This document shows positions 2,053 to 10,212 of a DNA stretch of 20,273 nucleotides, piece after piece (positions within the stretch are counted from its first letter, which is position 1; every line of letters starts with the position of its first letter). The DNA comes from a virus (taxonomy: Duplodnaviria; Heunggongvirae; Uroviricota; Caudoviricetes). The stretch spans positions 1 through 20,273 of the IMG/VR virus record IMGVR_UViG_3300046522_000173. The stretch is one strand, 5' to 3'. Both the position numbers and the translations under genes were made by a program. Under the pieces are notes generated by a model. It ran no database searches and was not told the origin of the DNA. It saw only the letters and a program-made list of their open reading frames with translations.

Positions 2053-2639
2053 ACAAAACTCTGTCAGTTTTTGACCTCATGCTCGCAGAGCCACTGCAAG
2101 GCTTCACAATGTTTGATTGCGTTGACCTCGCTAACCTTGATGCTGTAAACAACGTTCTGGCAGTATTGGGCTTTGATACGAACAAACCAATTTTTGTAGA
2201 GGCACACAACCACCGTACTTTGGCAGGCCAAGTGAAAATCGGCTACGTGTTCAAGGGGCACATTGCACACGGACGAGAGCACGTGCATGGCAAGTATTCG
2301 ACGCCGCATGATATGTACGCAGCAGCGGAGGCCACTGGACAGGATTGGTACGATGAGTTGCTGTCGATGGGCACACGCTCTGTCAGCTACGGCTCAGACG
2401 CTCTAGACGATAAGATTCCTAGCCGAGAGGAGCCGGAATACCGCGCAGAAGAGCAGAAGATTCTTGACGACATTAAGTTGTTGAACGATCTGCTGGTTCT
2501 TGCACGAGGCGATCAACGACGAAGCGACGGTTCAATCAAGACGGCTTACGATTACAAGACACCGGAAGCCCCGCCTGAGAAGGCTAAGCGGCGCAAGAAG
2601 GGCTTTCGCAACGAAGTGGGATATACTGAAGATGAATGA
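2049..2639 (+). CDS. Hypothetical protein (196 aa)
   Basis: ATGA overlap with the upstream gene, SD GGAGG, and 8-nt overlap with nrdA. No family recognised. Confidence 0.75.
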   Translation: MNKTLSVFDLMLAEPLQGFTMFDCVDLANLDAVNNVLAVLGFDTNKPIFVEAHNHRTLAGQVKIGYVFKGHIAHGREHVHGKYSTPHDMYAAAEATGQDWYDELLSMGTRSVSYGSDALDDKIPSREEPEYRAEEQKILDDIKLLNDLLVLARGDQRRSDGSIKTAYDYKTPEAPPEKAKRRKKGFRNEVGYTEDE

Positions 2640-5600
2640 CAAACATATTATGGTAACTAAGCGGGATGGTACTGTTGTCCCGTTTGATCCAGAGAAGCTT
2701 ACTCGCTGGGCCAAGTGGGCAGGTAACATTGGTGTGGACTGGTTTGGCATCGTAGCTCAAACTTACCAGAAGCTTCCTGACCAATGCACTACTCAGGAGC
2801 TTCAGCAAGCGATGATTCAGGCTTGTATGGACTTTGAAGATACGCCGCATATGCTGATGGCGGGCCGTCTGCTGATGGGCAGTGTGTACAAGGAAGCGTT
2901 CGGTGGGCATGACAAGATTCCAACCGTCCCGCAGATTTACTCGCATATGGTAAGCAGTGGTTTGTGGGAAGATATGGGTTATTCGTGGGAAGATTTGGAG
3001 GAAGCTCAATCCTTCATCAACCACGAGCGAGACCTGAACAGTGTTCACTCTGTTGTGAATCAAATCACTACTAAGTACGCTATCAAGGACATCGAGAAGA
3101 ACATTGCCCTGGAGTCGCCTGCATTTGTGTGGATGCGTATGGCTCTTGGCGTATGTAAGGAAGAGTCTGTTGAAACTCGTATGCAGAGCGTCAAAGAATA
3201 CTACGAAGACTTTGCAACAGGGCGAATCAATGCTCCTACGCCGAACATTAACAATCTTGGTACACCTAAACGCAACTATGCTTCTTGCTGCGTCTACAAG
3301 AGCAACGACACGCTAGACAGTCTTGCCACGGGCGACCATATCGCAACTAAGATGACTGCCGCCAGTGCAGGTATTGGCGGCATGCTGATGACGCGAAGCA
3401 AGGGTGATGGTGTTCGTAAGAATACTATCCGCCACGGTGGCAAACTCCCGTACTACAATGCGCAGGCGGGTGCAGTTAATGCGAACTTGCAAGGCGGACG
3501 AGGGGGAGCTGAAACAGTCCACTTCAATTGCCTGGACCCGGAGATTGAAACACTGCTTCGATTACGCCATCCAACTACTGTGGAGAGTAAGGCCGAACGG
3601 CGATTGGACTACAGCTTTGGCTACCACCCTCTGTTGGCAGAGAAAGCAGCAAAGAACGAACAGTGGATGCTCGTGAGCTACAAGGTGAATCCTGACCTCT
3701 GGCACGCTATGTATAAGGACGACGGTAGCTTTGCTCAGCTGTATGCAGAGCATGAGAAGAGCAAGATGCGTAAGAAGTTCGTCAGTGCTCGTTGGTTGGT
3801 GGGCGAGTTCCTGCGAATGCAAGAGGAAACAGGCCGCATGTATGAGCACAACACACTTGAGATGAACCGGCATACCAGTTTCAAGGATACGATCTATAGT
3901 AGTAACCTGTGTGTTGCACCTGAGACTAGAATTCTTACCAAAGCAGGGTATGTTGAAATCGCCAGTCTTAAGGGCAAAGAAGTTGATGTTTGGAACGGCA
4001 AAGAGTGGTCCAGTGTCACCGTTGTAAAGACTGGCGAGAAGCGTAAACTGATTAAAGTGGTGACCAAAGATGGTTTCGAGTTGGAGTGCACTCCACAACA
4101 CAAGTTTTATCTGAATAAGAGGTATTCTAAAAAGCAGTACGAGGTGCAAGCTAACGACCTTAAAAAGGGGGACAAACTTATCAAGTTTGAGCTTCCGATC
4201 ATTCAAGGGGCAGACGTGTTGGATGAAGCTTATGCTAATGGCTTCTACACTGGTGACGGTTGCTTTTACGGGAACAATCAAATTGTCTATTTCTACGGTG
4301 AGAAAAAGAAATTGTTCCCACTCTTTAAGCACCTGTTCCATTATGTTATCGTACAGGATGCGCAAGACCGTATCGTGGGGCACACAAGGAGCCTCAAGGA
4401 AAAGTTCTTCGTCCCTGGCTGCAACTTTACTGTCGAGTCACGGCTTAAGTGGTTGGCAGGAATTTTGGACTCCGATGGTGTGGTTTGCTTCAACGGCAAT
4501 ACCCAATCGTTCCAAGTTGGAAGTATTGAGAAAAAGTTCCTGCAAGAAGTTCAGATCATGTTGCAAACGCTGGGTGTCAAGTCCAAGGTGACTAAGAACA
4601 GCGATGAGGGTATGAAACTGCTTCCGGCTAACAACGGCACGGGTGAGAGCAAGTTGTTCTTCTGCCAGACTGCATATCGTCTTCTTATCGGTAATGATGG
4701 GGTTAGCAAGCTCAAAGACCTTGGACTTGAAACAATTAGGTTGAAGACGACAGAACACCGTCCCAATAGGGAGTGCTCGCAGTTCATCAGGATCGCTGAT
4801 GTTGTTGATGAAGGGCGTTACGATGACACATACTGCTTCACTGAACCGAAGCGCAACATGGGGATGTTCAACGGTATCTTGACGGGACAGTGCCAAGAAA
4901 TTGGTCTGCCAACTGAAGGGTACAACAGTGTTACGGATTTGTATGAGGGACGGGATGCACCAGGAAATCCTGAAATCGGGCTTTGCAACTTGGGTGCAGT
5001 GGTAGCGGGCCGCGTTCGCCCTGAGGTATACGAGGGTGTTGCATACCGTTCCCTTAAAATGATTGACAACGTAATATCAATGATGGAGTATCCGTTCCCG
5101 CACTTGAAATACACAGCACAGGCTCGCCGTTCAGCAGGTGTTGGTATCACAAATCTTGCCCATGATATGGCCGTGAAGGGCCTTCGTTACGACTCCGCTG
5201 ACGGTAAGGCATATATGCACAGGTTGGCTGAAATGCACTCTTATTGGTTGCACAAGGCTTCTATTCGGTTGGCGAAGGAACGTGGCAAATGTGATTGGTT
5301 CCATAAAACAAAGTACGCCAATGGCTGGTTGCCCGTAGACACGTACGCTAAACAAGTGGATAATATTACGGATCAGCCGCTACTGTGTGATTGGGAAGGA
5401 TTGCGCAAGGAGATTGCCGAGCATGGGCTGCGTAACAGTGTTCTCGAAGCATTCATGCCTGTGGAGTCTAGTAGTCTTGCTGGTAACACCACTAATTCGA
5501 TTTACCCTGTTCGGGAGAGTGTGGTCATCAAGACTAGTGGGACTAACAAGAATGTGTTCATCGCACCTGACTGGGAAGAGCTGAAAGATCGTTACCAGAT

Positions 5601-5862
5601 GGCTTGGGATGTCCCAATCAAGGACCAAACCGAGATGTATGCTATCTTCCAGAAGTTCTGTGGGCAAGCGATTAGTGCTGACTTCTGGCGTACTTTTGAT
5701 CCGAGTAAGCCGAAGCAACTTAGTGCTAAACAACTTCTACTTGAGTGGTTCTACCGAATCAAGTGCGGCCTTAAAACAAAATACTACTCCAATAGCCGCT
5801 CCGGTCTTACGATTCTTAACGAAGACCCTGATGCTGTCGAATGTGAGTCCTGCAAGCTATAA
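2632..5862 (+). CDS. nrdA: Class Ia ribonucleotide reductase alpha subunit, intein-containing (1076 aa precursor, about 749 aa spliced)
   Basis: Start moved to ATG 2632 (MNDKHIMVTKRDG, ATP-cone start). Motifs: YASCC, SNL/CQEIGLP (catalytic Asn-Cys-Glu split by the intein), EIGLCNLG, KTKYY, C-terminal CESC redox pair. Confidence 0.95.
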   Translation: MNDKHIMVTKRDGTVVPFDPEKLTRWAKWAGNIGVDWFGIVAQTYQKLPDQCTTQELQQAMIQACMDFEDTPHMLMAGRLLMGSVYKEAFGGHDKIPTVPQIYSHMVSSGLWEDMGYSWEDLEEAQSFINHERDLNSVHSVVNQITTKYAIKDIEKNIALESPAFVWMRMALGVCKEESVETRMQSVKEYYEDFATGRINAPTPNINNLGTPKRNYASCCVYKSNDTLDSLATGDHIATKMTAASAGIGGMLMTRSKGDGVRKNTIRHGGKLPYYNAQAGAVNANLQGGRGGAETVHFNCLDPEIETLLRLRHPTTVESKAERRLDYSFGYHPLLAEKAAKNEQWMLVSYKVNPDLWHAMYKDDGSFAQLYAEHEKSKMRKKFVSARWLVGEFLRMQEETGRMYEHNTLEMNRHTSFKDTIYSSNLCVAPETRILTKAGYVEIASLKGKEVDVWNGKEWSSVTVVKTGEKRKLIKVVTKDGFELECTPQHKFYLNKRYSKKQYEVQANDLKKGDKLIKFELPIIQGADVLDEAYANGFYTGDGCFYGNNQIVYFYGEKKKLFPLFKHLFHYVIVQDAQDRIVGHTRSLKEKFFVPGCNFTVESRLKWLAGILDSDGVVCFNGNTQSFQVGSIEKKFLQEVQIMLQTLGVKSKVTKNSDEGMKLLPANNGTGESKLFFCQTAYRLLIGNDGVSKLKDLGLETIRLKTTEHRPNRECSQFIRIADVVDEGRYDDTYCFTEPKRNMGMFNGILTGQCQEIGLPTEGYNSVTDLYEGRDAPGNPEIGLCNLGAVVAGRVRPEVYEGVAYRSLKMIDNVISMMEYPFPHLKYTAQARRSAGVGITNLAHDMAVKGLRYDSADGKAYMHRLAEMHSYWLHKASIRLAKERGKCDWFHKTKYANGWLPVDTYAKQVDNITDQPLLCDWEGLRKEIAEHGLRNSVLEAFMPVESSSLAGNTTNSIYPVRESVVIKTSGTNKNVFIAPDWEELKDRYQMAWDVPIKDQTEMYAIFQKFCGQAISADFWRTFDPSKPKQLSAKQLLLEWFYRIKCGLKTKYYSNSRSGLTILNEDPDAVECESCKL
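3910..4890 (+). mobile_element. Full-length intein (327 aa) with LAGLIDADG homing endonuclease and C-terminal Gln
   Basis: Begins CVAPETRILT immediately after SSNL. Block B CTPQHKF. Endonuclease motifs YANGFYTGDG and WLAGILDSDG. Ends YCFTEPKRNMGMFNGILTGQ, followed by the +1 Cys. Removing it restores SNLCQE. Confidence 0.95.
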
Positions 5863-6968: not shown

Positions 6969-7197
6969 GAATAACTGCCCTGAGTGCCAGAAAGCTATGA
7001 TGCTGCTGCAAGCTAAGGGTGTCCCATACCAAGTGATGAAGGTGGATGAACAGCCAGAGGCACGTGCATTCCTCATCGCACAAGGTCACAAGTCGGTTCC
7101 ACAGGTGTACAAGGATGGTGAGCTGTTCGTACAAGGCGGGTACAAAGGCCTCCTAACCATCACCGACTCAGACTTCACCGCCCTAAAAGAATCTTAA
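6949..7197 (+). CDS. Glutaredoxin-like redoxin (likely RNR reductant)
   Basis: ATG 6949 with SD GAGGT at 6936-6940. CPEC active site, SVPQ cis-Pro motif and GG motif. Directly follows nrdB. Confidence 0.9.
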   Translation: MILVYSKNNCPECQKAMMLLQAKGVPYQVMKVDEQPEARAFLIAQGHKSVPQVYKDGELFVQGGYKGLLTITDSDFTALKES

Positions 7198-7200
7198 AAT

Positions 7201-7251
7201 TGTTGTAGACAGAGAGGGATTGCTTGCGTATAATTCTTCTCTGTTGCAACA
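7201..7251 (+). repeat. Long imperfect inverted repeat (about 18 bp, one bulge, four G-U pairs) enclosing most of the -10 box
   Basis: TGTTGTAGACAGAGAGGGA (7201-7219) pairs with TTCTTCTCTGTTGCAACA (7234-7251). The wobble pairs work only on the + strand RNA. Confidence 0.8.
7206..7234 (+). promoter_or_regulatory. Sigma70-type promoter for the small-ORF operon
   Basis: TAGACA (7206-7211), 17 nt spacer, TATAAT (7229-7234). SD AAGGAG at 7257-7262. Confidence 0.8.
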
Positions 7252-7267
7252 CAACCAAGGAGAAACG

Positions 7268-7465
7268 ATGTTCAACCTGTTTAACAAGGTGTACTCTCTA
7301 GAGTTGGTCTTTACGGACAACACCTGCACGCTGCATGAGGGTGTCACTGGCATCAAAAGATACGGCGACACAATATCATTCAACAAGGGTGGCACTGTCC
7401 ACCGAGTTAATTGGGACCACCTGTACGCAGCATCTTATAAGGCGACTACGAATGTTGACCAGTAA
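7268..7465 (+). CDS. Hypothetical protein (65 aa)
   Basis: ATG 7268 with SD AAGGAG. First gene after promoter 7206-7234. Predicted beta-rich. Confidence 0.75.
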   Translation: MFNLFNKVYSLELVFTDNTCTLHEGVTGIKRYGDTISFNKGGTVHRVNWDHLYAASYKATTNVDQ

Positions 7466-7655
7466 AATCGTCCCAGCCCGCAAAGCTGTTTCGTCCGACC
7501 TGCACTACGAAGCAGGTGGTAAAGTCCACCGAGTGTTTGACACTAATGAGCACGGTGAACTGATCCCAGTTTCGTATATGCGGCAACATGATTCTTTCGT
7601 ACTATACTTTGCACCACGTGGCAAAGTGTTTGCAGAAATCACTAACGACTTTTAA
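7452..7655 (+). CDS. Hypothetical protein (67 aa)
   Basis: ATG 7452 overlaps the previous stop by 14 nt and fills the gap to the next SD. Own SD is weak. Confidence 0.65.
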   Translation: MLTSKIVPARKAVSSDLHYEAGGKVHRVFDTNEHGELIPVSYMRQHDSFVLYFAPRGKVFAEITNDF

Positions 7656-7664
7656 GGAGGACAA

Positions 7665-7910
7665 ATGACTGATACCAATACCTACATCACCACCAATGTA
7701 GCGCCCGCAACGTACACCACCCTTGCACGCGCAGAAGACGAATCTTACGCTGATTACCGTATCCGTCGCAAGCTCGCCAATGATGCTGTCAAGGCTCTTA
7801 AATACGGCGAGACGTTCCACATGAGCAGTGTGTACGGTACGTACGAGAACAAGGAGAAGCAAGCGCTGAAGGCTGCTCGCAAGGCACGTAAATCAGCTAA
7901 GAAAGGCTAA
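7665..7910 (+). CDS. Hypothetical basic protein (81 aa)
   Basis: Strong SD AAGGAGG. RAEDESYADYRIRRK core and a Lys/Arg-rich C-terminus. Confidence 0.8.
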   Translation: MTDTNTYITTNVAPATYTTLARAEDESYADYRIRRKLANDAVKALKYGETFHMSSVYGTYENKEKQALKAARKARKSAKKG

Positions 7911-7913
7911 TGA

Positions 7914-8276
7914 ATGGATAACCAACATAAGCTTATCAAGGGCTACCGCGAGCTGAGTCAAGAAGAGATTGACCTGATGAACGAAGTCAAGGACATGGCA
8001 GAAAGCATGAAACAACTGCACAGCAAGATTTATGCACACCTACGTAACACGTGCACTCAAGAGCAGTGCTCTTTTGTTTATGATGGGGCGCAAACCGTTG
8101 ACAAAATGGCTGTCAGCATGTCAATCGGTGGCGTGACGACTATTTATCAAGACTCGGAGAACACGCTTCGCTGGAAAGCTGCTCATCCTTACGAGTGGCT
8201 CAGCCGTGGTAAAGATGATCTGCAAGACGGTTTTATGAAACTTACCCGTGCTATTGCACAACCCACTACTTTCTAA
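7914..8276 (+). CDS. acb2: Anti-CBASS cyclic-oligonucleotide sponge Acb2 (T4 Vs.4 family) with internal insertion
   Basis: N-terminus MDNQHKLIKGYRELSQEEIDLMNEVK and C-terminus WLSRGKDDLQDGFMKLTRAIAQPTTF closely match the termini of Pseudomonas phage Acb2 as I recall them ([26 protein letters not shown] ... [26 protein letters not shown]). Confidence 0.9.
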   Translation: MDNQHKLIKGYRELSQEEIDLMNEVKDMAESMKQLHSKIYAHLRNTCTQEQCSFVYDGAQTVDKMAVSMSIGGVTTIYQDSENTLRWKAAHPYEWLSRGKDDLQDGFMKLTRAIAQPTTF

Positions 8277-8285
8277 GGATAAACA

Positions 8286-8549
8286 ATGACCAACATTATC
8301 AACATCGACAACGCCCAAATCGACGCAACCAAACTGACTGGCTTCCTCCAGAGGGCCATTAGTGTCCAAGCTGAAATCGAAATGAACAAAACGGACCTGA
8401 AGGAAATCGTCCAAGAAGCCGTTGACGCAACTAAACTGGATAAGAAGATCGTCCGCAAGTTCTTCACCACTCGCTACAAGGCCACCACCAAGGATGTCGT
8501 GGCTGAAGCTGAGACGCTGGATGCACTGAGCAAGGCTGTAGACGGCTAA
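8286..8549 (+). CDS. Putative dsDNA-binding protein, T4 DsbA / GapR (DUF2312)-like
   Basis: 87 aa helical pattern: L..F.QR....QAEIEMNKTDLKEIVQEA.....LDKKIVRK....RYK...VVAEAE. SD AAGGA. Confidence 0.6.
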   Translation: MTNIINIDNAQIDATKLTGFLQRAISVQAEIEMNKTDLKEIVQEAVDATKLDKKIVRKFFTTRYKATTKDVVAEAETLDALSKAVDG

Positions 8550-8560
8550 GGCCGTTCAAT
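8541..8560 (+). terminator. Possible weak terminator or hairpin ending the small-ORF operon
   Basis: GACGGC-TAAG-GCCGTT stem-loop with the stop codon in the loop. Tail is AT-rich but not poly-U. Confidence 0.3.
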
Positions 8561-8640
8561 ATATCCGTGACAATGTTGCATGTAATAAGAGAAACTGAAC
8601 AGGGTGTTTACAACATTCTGTGAAAATACGCGGAAATGTG

Positions 8641-8669
8641 TTGACGGGCAACAACCCGAGATATATAGT
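8641..8669 (+). promoter_or_regulatory. Sigma70-type promoter for gene 8789-9058
   Basis: TTGACG (8641-8646), 17 nt spacer, TATAGT (8664-8669). Confidence 0.75.
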
Positions 8670-8788
8670 AAGGACATGTTGAACACAGATCAAAGCGTTA
8701 TATCTGACCTGTGGCAGCAAATAACAAGAGCGGAATCGCCGGAATAAACATTCTACCAAAAGCACTTAACAAACAAGGAACCTAGTAA

Positions 8789-9058
8789 ATGAACATCATC
8801 GCTACCGCTCAAGTCATCCTCGCCCTGCTGCCAGTTGTATCGGACACTGTAAAGAATGTCGAAGCTGCCGTTGGAGCAGGCAACGGTGCCGAGAAGCTGA
8901 AGCTTGCCCTGGCCATCATCAAGCCAATCTACGAAGCGTCCAACCCGCCAGTCGCCTTCGACAGTGTTGTGGCAAAGATCACTGAAGTGATTGCTGCGTT
9001 GGTGACGTTCTACGGCAATATCGGTGCATTCGTCACCAGCCTGAAGAAAGCTGCCTGA
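8789..9058 (+). CDS. Small hydrophobic/amphipathic membrane-associated protein, LL-H-holin-like
   Basis: 89 aa, hydrophobic N- and C-terminal helices, VKNVEAAVGAGNGAEKLKLA motif resembling the (A/V)E...G.G.EK signature of LL-H-type holins. SD AAGGA at 8776-8780. Confidence 0.5.
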   Translation: MNIIATAQVILALLPVVSDTVKNVEAAVGAGNGAEKLKLALAIIKPIYEASNPPVAFDSVVAKITEVIAALVTFYGNIGAFVTSLKKAA

Positions 9059-9063
9059 CAAGT

Positions 9064-9096
9064 AAAAATGCCTCACCACAATTAAGTGAGTGAGGC
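9064..9096 (-). terminator. Intrinsic terminator for the - strand late/lysis transcript
   Basis: GCCTCAC-CAC-AATTAA-GTG-A-GTGAGGC stem with an AAAAA run on its left, which reads as a U-tract on the - strand. Confidence 0.75.
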
Positions 9097-9131
9097 GAAG
9101 GGTTGCTCTACCGTGAGCACTTACAAGGAAA

Positions 9132-9172
9132 GGGAGGAGGCCATTGCTCGGCTTCTTCCCTGTTTCTATTTT
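9132..9172 (+). terminator. Intrinsic terminator for the + strand transcript
   Basis: GGGAGGAGGCC / GGCTTCTTCCC stem (G-U pairs valid only on the + strand) followed by TGTTTCTATTTT. Confidence 0.75.
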
Positions 9173-9211
9173 AGCGTGCATTGCATCTTCAGTGCAACAC
9201 CTTTGAAGCTA

Positions 9212-9685
9212 CTAAGCATCGTTTGTGAGATTGTTTGTTGCAGAGAAGGGAGCGGAGTGCTGTCTTGCCCATTCAAGGGCTCTTGCACGTACGTCTTCAT
9301 CAATTGACTGATTAGCTCCGTCTCGTCCCACAGGGGCTTCGCTGCCGCTTTGCACACTGGCGGGCTCTTCTGTGCCTGACTGTTCAGGGTTTGACACAGA
9401 CGGCTGGGCTTCTCGTATGGCTCTCGGCTGCACTCCGATGTGCTTGGACGTGATGACAGTGAGGATGCTATTGACGATGAAGAAAATAGTGCCAGCAATA
9501 GAAACAGCCAACTCGTCCGATACTGGCAGATCATATCCCATCCCTTTAGCAATTGCGACAACAAGCATTATCAGAGCAGCTACAACCGGCTGGACGATGG
9601 CTTGACCCTTCTTCCAGAACGCCGGGTCGGACACCTGATGCCCGTACGAAAACAACTTGTAAAACTGCTTTATTGTCTCTAGCAT
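9212..9685 (-). CDS. Putative holin-like membrane protein (2 TM segments, long polar C-terminal tail)
   Basis: Hydrophobic segments IVQPVVAALIMLVVAIA and LAVSIAGTIFFIVNSILTVI. Overlaps the endolysin stop by 7 nt. Confidence 0.55.
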   Translation of the reverse strand: MLETIKQFYKLFSYGHQVSDPAFWKKGQAIVQPVVAALIMLVVAIAKGMGYDLPVSDELAVSIAGTIFFIVNSILTVITSKHIGVQPRAIREAQPSVSNPEQSGTEEPASVQSGSEAPVGRDGANQSIDEDVRARALEWARQHSAPFSATNNLTNDA

Positions 9686-10212
9686 TTCAACACCTCTCTT
9701 GCACGTTTATAAAGTGCTTGACGATCTTCCAAGCCGTTCGTTCCACCATTAATCTTCTTGGTGATGCGGACAAAGGCTTCGTCTGTACCGGCATCTGCCA
9801 ACACACTCAATCCCCTATCGCTCCACCACCAAGCCGCTGTACGGCAGGCATTCACGGGCTGTTCAAGCAACTCAGGCTTTGCTACGCAGTCAATGTGTAA
9901 GGCAGCAGCCACTTGGGAATAATTTAGAAATCCCGTGACTTGGATCAGCCCTCGCCCCTTGTACTTGACGCCCCAACCTGGATGAGTATTACCAAGCGAC
10001 TTCCTACCTTCGTAAGCCTCGCCACTAGCCAACTCCTTTACGTACCGAAGCTGCCCAGACTCGTGACCTACTTGAGCAAGGAACGCAGCCATCCGCAGAG
10101 GTGTATTAACCTCAAACTCGGTCATAGCTGCGTTCAGCGGACCTAAGAATGTTTGTGCACGAGACTTCGCGTAGGGCATGATGGCAACCAGCTGCTCTAG
10201 TGTGAGTTCCAT
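9679..10212 (-). CDS. Endolysin, glycoside hydrolase family 19 (chitinase-like)
   Basis: AAFLAQVGHESGQLRYVKE, YKGRGLIQVTG..NY and ITKKINGGTNGLEDR are GH19 motifs. No signal or SAR segment. TGATG coupling with the upstream gene. Confidence 0.92.
   Translation of the reverse strand: MELTLEQLVAIMPYAKSRAQTFLGPLNAAMTEFEVNTPLRMAAFLAQVGHESGQLRYVKELASGEAYEGRKSLGNTHPGWGVKYKGRGLIQVTGFLNYSQVAAALHIDCVAKPELLEQPVNACRTAAWWWSDRGLSVLADAGTDEAFVRITKKINGGTNGLEDRQALYKRAREVLKC

Follow-up and report, generated by a model that had tools for sequence, protein, structure and literature searches.

A phage Acb2-family protein with a lineage-specific, predicted beta-hairpin insert at the tip of its helical hairpin

The window analysed here, a stretch of DNA of 20,273 nucleotides, covers the initial 20 kb of an IMG/VR virus record that is 84,273 nt long, with an estimated completeness of 96%. 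Upstream of the gene under study, acb2, it encodes a metallophosphoesterase, an HNH endonuclease, a MazG-like pyrophosphatase, the large (intein-containing) and small subunits of a ribonucleotide reductase (RNR) and a glutaredoxin, and downstream, on the opposite strand, an endolysin and tail genes. The acb2 gene itself sits within a run of small + strand ORFs (7335-7655, 7665-7910, 8286-8549 and 8789-9058), where the following features can be recognized:

7206-7234, + strand: candidate sigma-70-like promoter, an 11/12 match from a consensus scan alone, which found 6 sites against 2.4 expected
7900-7906, + strand: Shine-Dalgarno-like AGAAAGG, 7-8 nt before the acb2 ATG, read from the sequence
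7914-8276, + strand: acb2-family gene, 120 codons plus stop (ORF list and translation, Pfam PF24729, match to 8h2j, structural match)
7914-7991, + strand: N-terminal segment, residues 1-26, with the dinucleotide-pocket residues Y11, L14 and K26 (8h2j alignment, family counts, literature)
7959-8051, + strand: first long helix, residues 16-46 (AlphaFold2 pLDDT 88-98; within the confident co-fold self-interface)
8052-8159, + strand: lineage-specific insert, residues 47-82 (alignment gap; predicted beta-hairpin or three-strand meander, acidic)
8157-8258, + strand: second long helix, residues 82-115, broken at H91/P92 (AlphaFold2 model and 8h2j alignment)

Judging from its sequence, the promoter-like match at 7206-7234 could drive the whole run of small + strand ORFs, acb2 included. 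None of the small ORFs flanking acb2 matched a Pfam family, and the only PHROG match among them was that of ORF 8286-8549 (+), a weak one to phrog_639 ('transcriptional regulator', E=6e-8), with DUF7829 falling below the cut-off. In a related contig (L001), the acb2 homologue is likewise flanked by a row of small ORFs, and it is possible that these neighbours are further early or anti-defence genes. A megablast search with positions 7000-9500 of the window gave no match among isolated phages, and a tail-region protein gave only one, remote match, to EBPR siphovirus 2 (25%); by such comparisons, this appears to be a phage without a close cultured relative. Two neighbouring genes deserve a separate mention. 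The RNR large subunit (2500-5862, +) is a protein of 1120 aa interrupted by an intein of the LAGLIDADG type (LAGLIDADG_3 at residues 648-734, Intein_splicing at 504-781, RNR barrel at 261-1096), and its syntenic counterpart in L001 has 743 aa and is uninterrupted. The lysis gene (9679-10212, -) matches the endolysin PHROG 181 and also a PHROG annotated as chitinase, and its positional equivalent in L001 (7823-8239, -) encodes a VanY/Peptidase_M15_4 enzyme, which looks like a module swap.

The ORF at 7914-8276 (+) is open, starts with ATG and encodes a product of 120 aa, the stop codon of the ORF upstream of it occupying positions 7908-7910. The preliminary description of this locus had noticed Acb2-like termini in the product, an impression borne out both by the Pfam family PF24729 (Acb2_Tad1_hairpin; 40.8 bits, E=2.6e-10, with a curated cut-off of 27) and by a phmmer search against all PDB sequences, in which PaMx33 Acb2 came out best (8h2j, E=7.8e-19; 8ixz, E=3.8e-18). 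The same Pfam family scored 37.6 bits on the phage genome, and PHROG 717 matched the protein with E=2.6e-21. The PF24729 profile is matched in full (1-58) and is spread across residues 10-116, and this stretching of a 58-position profile indicates an insertion inside the domain; the 8h2j match, in turn, comes in two blocks, with residues 1-46 of the protein aligned to Acb2 1-46 and residues 83-120 to Acb2 56-93. The protein is a genuine member of the Acb2 family, with a likeness far beyond chance. A Tad1-like reading, which the shared Pfam domain could have allowed, was ruled out by topology: Tad1 proteins begin with an antiparallel beta-sheet of four strands and end in two long helices (PMC12043709), whereas here the two helices have the beta element between them and the N-terminal residues form a canonical Acb2 motif. 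No Tad1 chain was found among the PDB sequence matches at E<=10.

An AlphaFold2 model of the protein, with 120 homologues in the alignment and a mean pLDDT of 87.7, comprises a short helix (4-7), a long helix (16-46) and a second long helix (82-90/92-115), whose break at H91/P92 corresponds to the E64/P65 kink of PaMx33 Acb2; P117, the equivalent of Acb2 P90, sits just past this helix. As modelled, the chain would have the protomer fold that defines Acb2, that is, a short helix at the N-terminus plus a pair of long antiparallel helices, with the kink kept. All significant Foldseek matches in the PDB were Acb2 chains (TM by target 0.82-0.87, E=3e-6), and VIA-align, used as an aligner that does not depend on Foldseek, gave Z=11.4 against 8h2j (rmsd 2.1 Å over 91 of 92 residues) and Z=9.3 against T4 Vs.4 (7uq2), with generic helical hairpins below both of them (Z<=8.5).

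Regarding the ligand sites, the residues of the cyclic-dinucleotide pocket, Y11, L14, K26 and P90, are all kept according to the alignment to 8h2j and to the family alignments, with the codons of Y11 and K26 at 7944-7946 and 7989-7991. In Acb2, two protomers contribute Y11 and K26 to hold the cyclic dinucleotide (PMC10312549; see also PMC12393519 for the roles of the pocket residues), and in a sample of 266 family members taken from two large searches they occur in 261 and 263 proteins, respectively. The second site, for cyclic trinucleotides, involves R67 and T74, residues less conserved than Y11 and K26: the R67A change abolishes cA3 binding, T74A weakens it, and the T4 and CHI14 homologues, each without one of the two residues, bind 3',3'-cGAMP and not cA3 (PMC10312549). 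The E64/P65 kink of PaMx33 Acb2 is described in the literature as opening or enlarging this pocket. In the protein of the window, the 8h2j alignment places E94 (8193-8195) at R67, D101 (8214-8216) at T74, R98 (8205-8207) at I71 and S97 at A70, and the codons of E94, R98 and D101 were confirmed directly in the DNA. The preliminary description had stated the roles of both residue pairs correctly, as comparison with PMC10312549 indicates, and its reading of this protein, with Y11 and K26 retained, acidic residues at the two trinucleotide positions and a new arginine nearby, stands in the 8h2j alignment. The R67/T74 pair that characterizes the broad-spectrum Acb2 subgroup (PaMx33/JBD67 type, binders of cA3/cAAG) is thus missing from it.

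That the altered site is something special, linked to the insert, is not supported by the family. Both R67 and T74 are present in 130 of the 266 homologues, and neither in 96. A maximum-likelihood tree on the core, with insert columns removed (81 columns, resolving poorly inside the clade of interest), places the protein in a clade of 50 members (SH-aLRT 95), 49 of which are without the pair, and most of these proteins are 92-99 aa long, with ordinary short tips and no insert. Since the loss of the pair spans the subfamily, including relatives without insert, the altered site predates the insert and is independent of it, and losing R67/T74 is a subfamily trait, a published and common variation, rather than a peculiarity of this phage. 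Positions 94 and 101 vary widely across the 50 proteins, an arginine at position 98 is found in 20 of them, and among the four proteins that carry the insert (see below) R98 is invariant and position 94 is E, K, K or D, a switching that argues against a new conserved ligand contact. Such variability resembles the outcome of relaxed constraint once the pocket had been lost, and not that of retargeting. Of the two fates that had been envisaged for trinucleotide binding, loss would be expected by analogy with the R67A, T4 and CHI14 data, and redirection is disfavoured by the variability at positions 94 and 101.

The insert itself consists of residues 47-82 (36 aa), which replace the 9 residues of the hairpin tip of Acb2 (47-55). 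The net gain is 27 residues, as had been estimated before; the stretch quoted at that time ends rightly at 8153, but it begins at 8064 (residues 51-80) and not at 8061. Its presumed beta-strand character is backed by the AlphaFold2 model, with strands at 51-56, 67-71 and 74-80 (pLDDT of the insert, 73-84), and the model of the most divergent carrier (P0004) shows a long two-stranded beta-hairpin (51-64 and 71-82, pLDDT about 90), so a beta-hairpin arm is a recurrent prediction, obtained independently in two carriers. In all four carriers the insert has a net charge of -3 to -5, with no basic or aromatic residue conserved across them, and its sequence is 14-25% identical in five of the six pairs and 43% in the sixth, as compared to 65-85% for the core. 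The maintenance in frame of a beta-rich segment of 34-37 residues in four proteins with such cores suggests that it is not simply junk.

As for the origin of the segment, a search with residues 44-86 against 5.8 billion proteins retrieved the protein itself only, although the index used needs shared 5-mers and the result is no proof of uniqueness, and an atlas search gave no usable feature match for the insert, its structural rows being of unrelated families with TM <0.5. A source within the phage's own genome was also sought, and DNA and protein searches yielded only a chance match of 21 nt; internal duplication as the origin was ruled out, as there is no second copy in the phage genome. Right at the 5' edge of the insert, within the acb2 ORF, there is a terminator-like hairpin with a T-run (8053-8073, +), which is probably a chance occurrence (regional count of 4, with a shuffled expectation of 2.5).

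Insertions at this site are common, which is one half of what the preliminary description had set against its own reading, namely an insert both common and functionally neutral. Between the equivalents of residues 43 and 86, members of the family have 0-51 residues (median 17, 90th percentile 30, n=266), and 16 of the 266 have at least 38, the present protein having 42; along the family alignments, the hairpin tip is a site of hypervariable length. Long tip inserts, unrelated and more helix-prone, are carried by Vibrio phage VP882 p26 (115 aa) and by many proteins of 108-129 aa from IMG/VR and metagenomes, most of which keep R67/T74. The beta-rich type, by comparison, is shared with only three others among 5.8 billion clustered proteins (P0002, P0003 and P0004), which are 119-122 aa long and 50-55% identical. 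When 1.84 billion representatives were searched exhaustively with a HMMER profile, a single match fell below 1e-30, the clade's own representative, and the next one (1e-29) was a protein without the insert. The genes of the three relatives occupy the same position, after the RNR small subunit, the glutaredoxin and small ORFs, and one of them lies on a contig of 54.6 kb where the lysis and tail genes are arranged alike; this shared position in related uncultured phages indicates that the insert marks one phage lineage. A literature search for insertions in Acb2 found no published description of such an insert.

Two other groups of Acb2 proteins came up in the same family. VP882 p26 (EF057797.1, 21779-22123), together with five loci (L006-L008, L042 and L049), forms a separate and fairly common group of 115 aa, in which the tip holds another kind of insert, an Asp-Glu-Cys motif is conserved and R67/T74 are intact. 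In six other proteins of 161-198 aa (P0243, P0250, P0226, P0255, P0241 and P0121), the Acb2 domain is found at the C-terminus, preceded by 50-125 extra N-terminal residues, and these may be either fusions or mis-called starts.

Acb2 assembles as a hexameric triangular prism with dinucleotide pockets at its three vertices, and PaMx33-type proteins have additional trinucleotide pockets at the ends of a central three-fold channel (PMC12393519, PMC12043709). A co-fold of three copies of the present protein reached an ipSAE of 0.60, with 0.30 for the best control, a mark that was attained by 20 of 30 proteins solved as one-chain pairs and, among those solved as single chains, by 1 of 23, although, with Acb2 hexamers already solved, this pass may reflect memory of Acb2. 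The runs agree in at least 63% of contacts, with a partner pLDDT of at least 77. The output is a dimer with a loosely attached third chain, without a three-fold ring or a hexamer, and is therefore silent on the trinucleotide pocket. The confident interface involves residues 17-47 and 86-118 only, in an antiparallel pairing of the two long helices to which the insert adds no confident contact; the co-fold thus supports self-association through the helices and not through the insert, as a likeness to Acb2 and not as a demonstration of binding. Contacts 18:42, 21:39 and 25:35 would bring residue 47 opposite residue ~13 of the partner, near Y11 and L14, and by this geometry, taken from a predicted sub-complex, the hairpins should project at the vertices of the prism, beside the dinucleotide pockets, with two tips per vertex pocket. 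The wording of the preliminary description had implied a location at the three-fold site, and the modelled geometry points instead to the dinucleotide pockets.

With all these data, the protein is probably a dinucleotide-only anti-CBASS sponge of an uncultured tailed phage of ~84 kb, bearing a lineage-specific surface decoration. Like the rest of its family, it would assemble into a hexameric triangular prism, whose three vertex pockets would sequester CBASS cyclic dinucleotides (signals of the 3',3'-cGAMP type). Binding of cyclic trinucleotides (cA3/cAAG) would not be expected, as with the homologues of T4 and CHI14: its three-fold pocket would be lined by three Glu, three Asp and three Arg in place of three Arg and three Thr, a composition for which neither cA3 nor cAAG is predicted to be a ligand. 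The tip segment would be a clade-specific, acidic and fast-diverging beta-hairpin at a permissive site, most likely exposed to the solvent as a decoration that is dispensable for oligomerisation.

A more active role for the insert, either as a new ligand pocket or as a second anti-defence activity, has precedents among phage sponges, since in Tad2 an insertion between beta2 and beta5 forms an independent CDN pocket (PMC12043709) and in Acb2_43 extra beta-strands help to form the 3'cADPR pocket (PMC12393519), and the persistence of an in-frame, beta-rich segment in four diverged proteins agrees with it. Nevertheless, this role is held to be unlikely. The segment is acidic in every carrier, shares no conserved basic or aromatic residue, diverges far more than the core, has no detectable relative in sequence or fold, and lies outside the confident self-interface, and other Acb2 lineages have unrelated inserts of like length at this very site; nothing indicates the second activity that had been suggested for it. 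A related possibility, likewise unlikely, is that the beta-hairpins, two to each vertex of the hexamer, serve as lids or walls for the dinucleotide pockets and change the signals captured, as the added strands of Acb2_43 do for 3'cADPR; the clade would then represent a kind of Acb2 whose hairpin tip is a new determinant of specificity.

Concerning the three-fold pocket, a retargeting through R98 to a different signal, instead of a simple loss, would be favoured by the location of this residue at the pocket-facing position of I71 and its presence in all four carriers and in 20 of the 50 subfamily members, by the helix kink that opens the pocket, kept in the model, and by the documented existence of Acb2 homologues with unexpected specificities (PMC12393519). 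It is regarded as quite unlikely, however, given that positions 94 and 101 vary widely, with E, K or D at position 94 in the closest relatives, that the resulting pocket would be net negative, and that E94, R98 and D101/D102 are spaced at i, i+3/i+4, as is typical of salt bridges within a helix, which they may form. Finally, the strong contrast in divergence between insert and core, together with its exposed predicted location outside the confident self-interface, could also be read as the mark of diversifying selection on a surface hairpin, by which the sponge would evade recognition or neutralisation by some host factor. To our knowledge, no host factor targeting Acb2 surfaces has been described, and the same pattern is expected from relaxed constraint, in a comparison of four sequences at ~50% identity with saturated synonymous sites; this last explanation is considered very unlikely. 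A decorated, dinucleotide-only sponge is thus the preferred reading of the locus.

Acb2 sponges are a major route by which phages disarm CBASS, and their members have diversified in the signals that they capture; the protein described here belongs to a sizeable subfamily that gave up the residues of the trinucleotide site. If the hairpin shapes the ligand pockets, it would be a further case of sponges gaining specificity by insertion; if it does not, the tip would be a permissive site, useful for the engineering or tagging of Acb2, and either outcome leaves current understanding standing. The novelty lies in a small structural variant not described before, in which the helical hairpin is tipped by a beta-hairpin in one phage lineage, a modest addition that brings no new mechanism, whereas the loss of R67/T74 and the variation in loop length were already documented or evident from alignments.

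Among the known systems, PaMx33 Acb2 (gp26; 8h2j, 8h2x and 8ixz) is similar to the present protein in its fold, its identical N-terminal motif, the residues Y11/L14/K26/P90 and the helix kink, with ~37% identity overall, rising to 47% across the 91 residues aligned by structure. It differs, however, in having a tip of 9 residues instead of a predicted beta-hairpin of 36, and R67, A70, I71 and T74 instead of E94, S97, R98 and D101, and the new protein, unlike PaMx33 Acb2, is encoded in a lytic-type phage of ~84 kb, next to ribonucleotide reductase genes. The Acb2 proteins of T4 (Vs.4, 7uq2) and of the Serratia phage CHI14, which bind cGAMP and not cA3, represent the functional class predicted for it, but their sequence similarity is very low (E=0.04 for T4), neither has a tip insert, and T4 Acb2 is without the helix kink that the model keeps here. 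The long-loop proteins (VP882 p26 and the metagenomic ones of 108-129 aa) also have their extra residues at exactly the same hairpin tip, although these inserts are unrelated, richer in helix-forming and acidic residues, and mostly accompanied by an intact R67/T74 pair. The Thoeris-inhibiting Acb2_43 likewise combines the Acb2 fold with added beta elements, and is an example of how added strands can change ligand specificity (PMC12393519); its strands, however, are found at the N- and C-termini and are part of the vertex pocket, whereas the protein of this uncultured phage has canonical termini and carries its beta element between the two helices.
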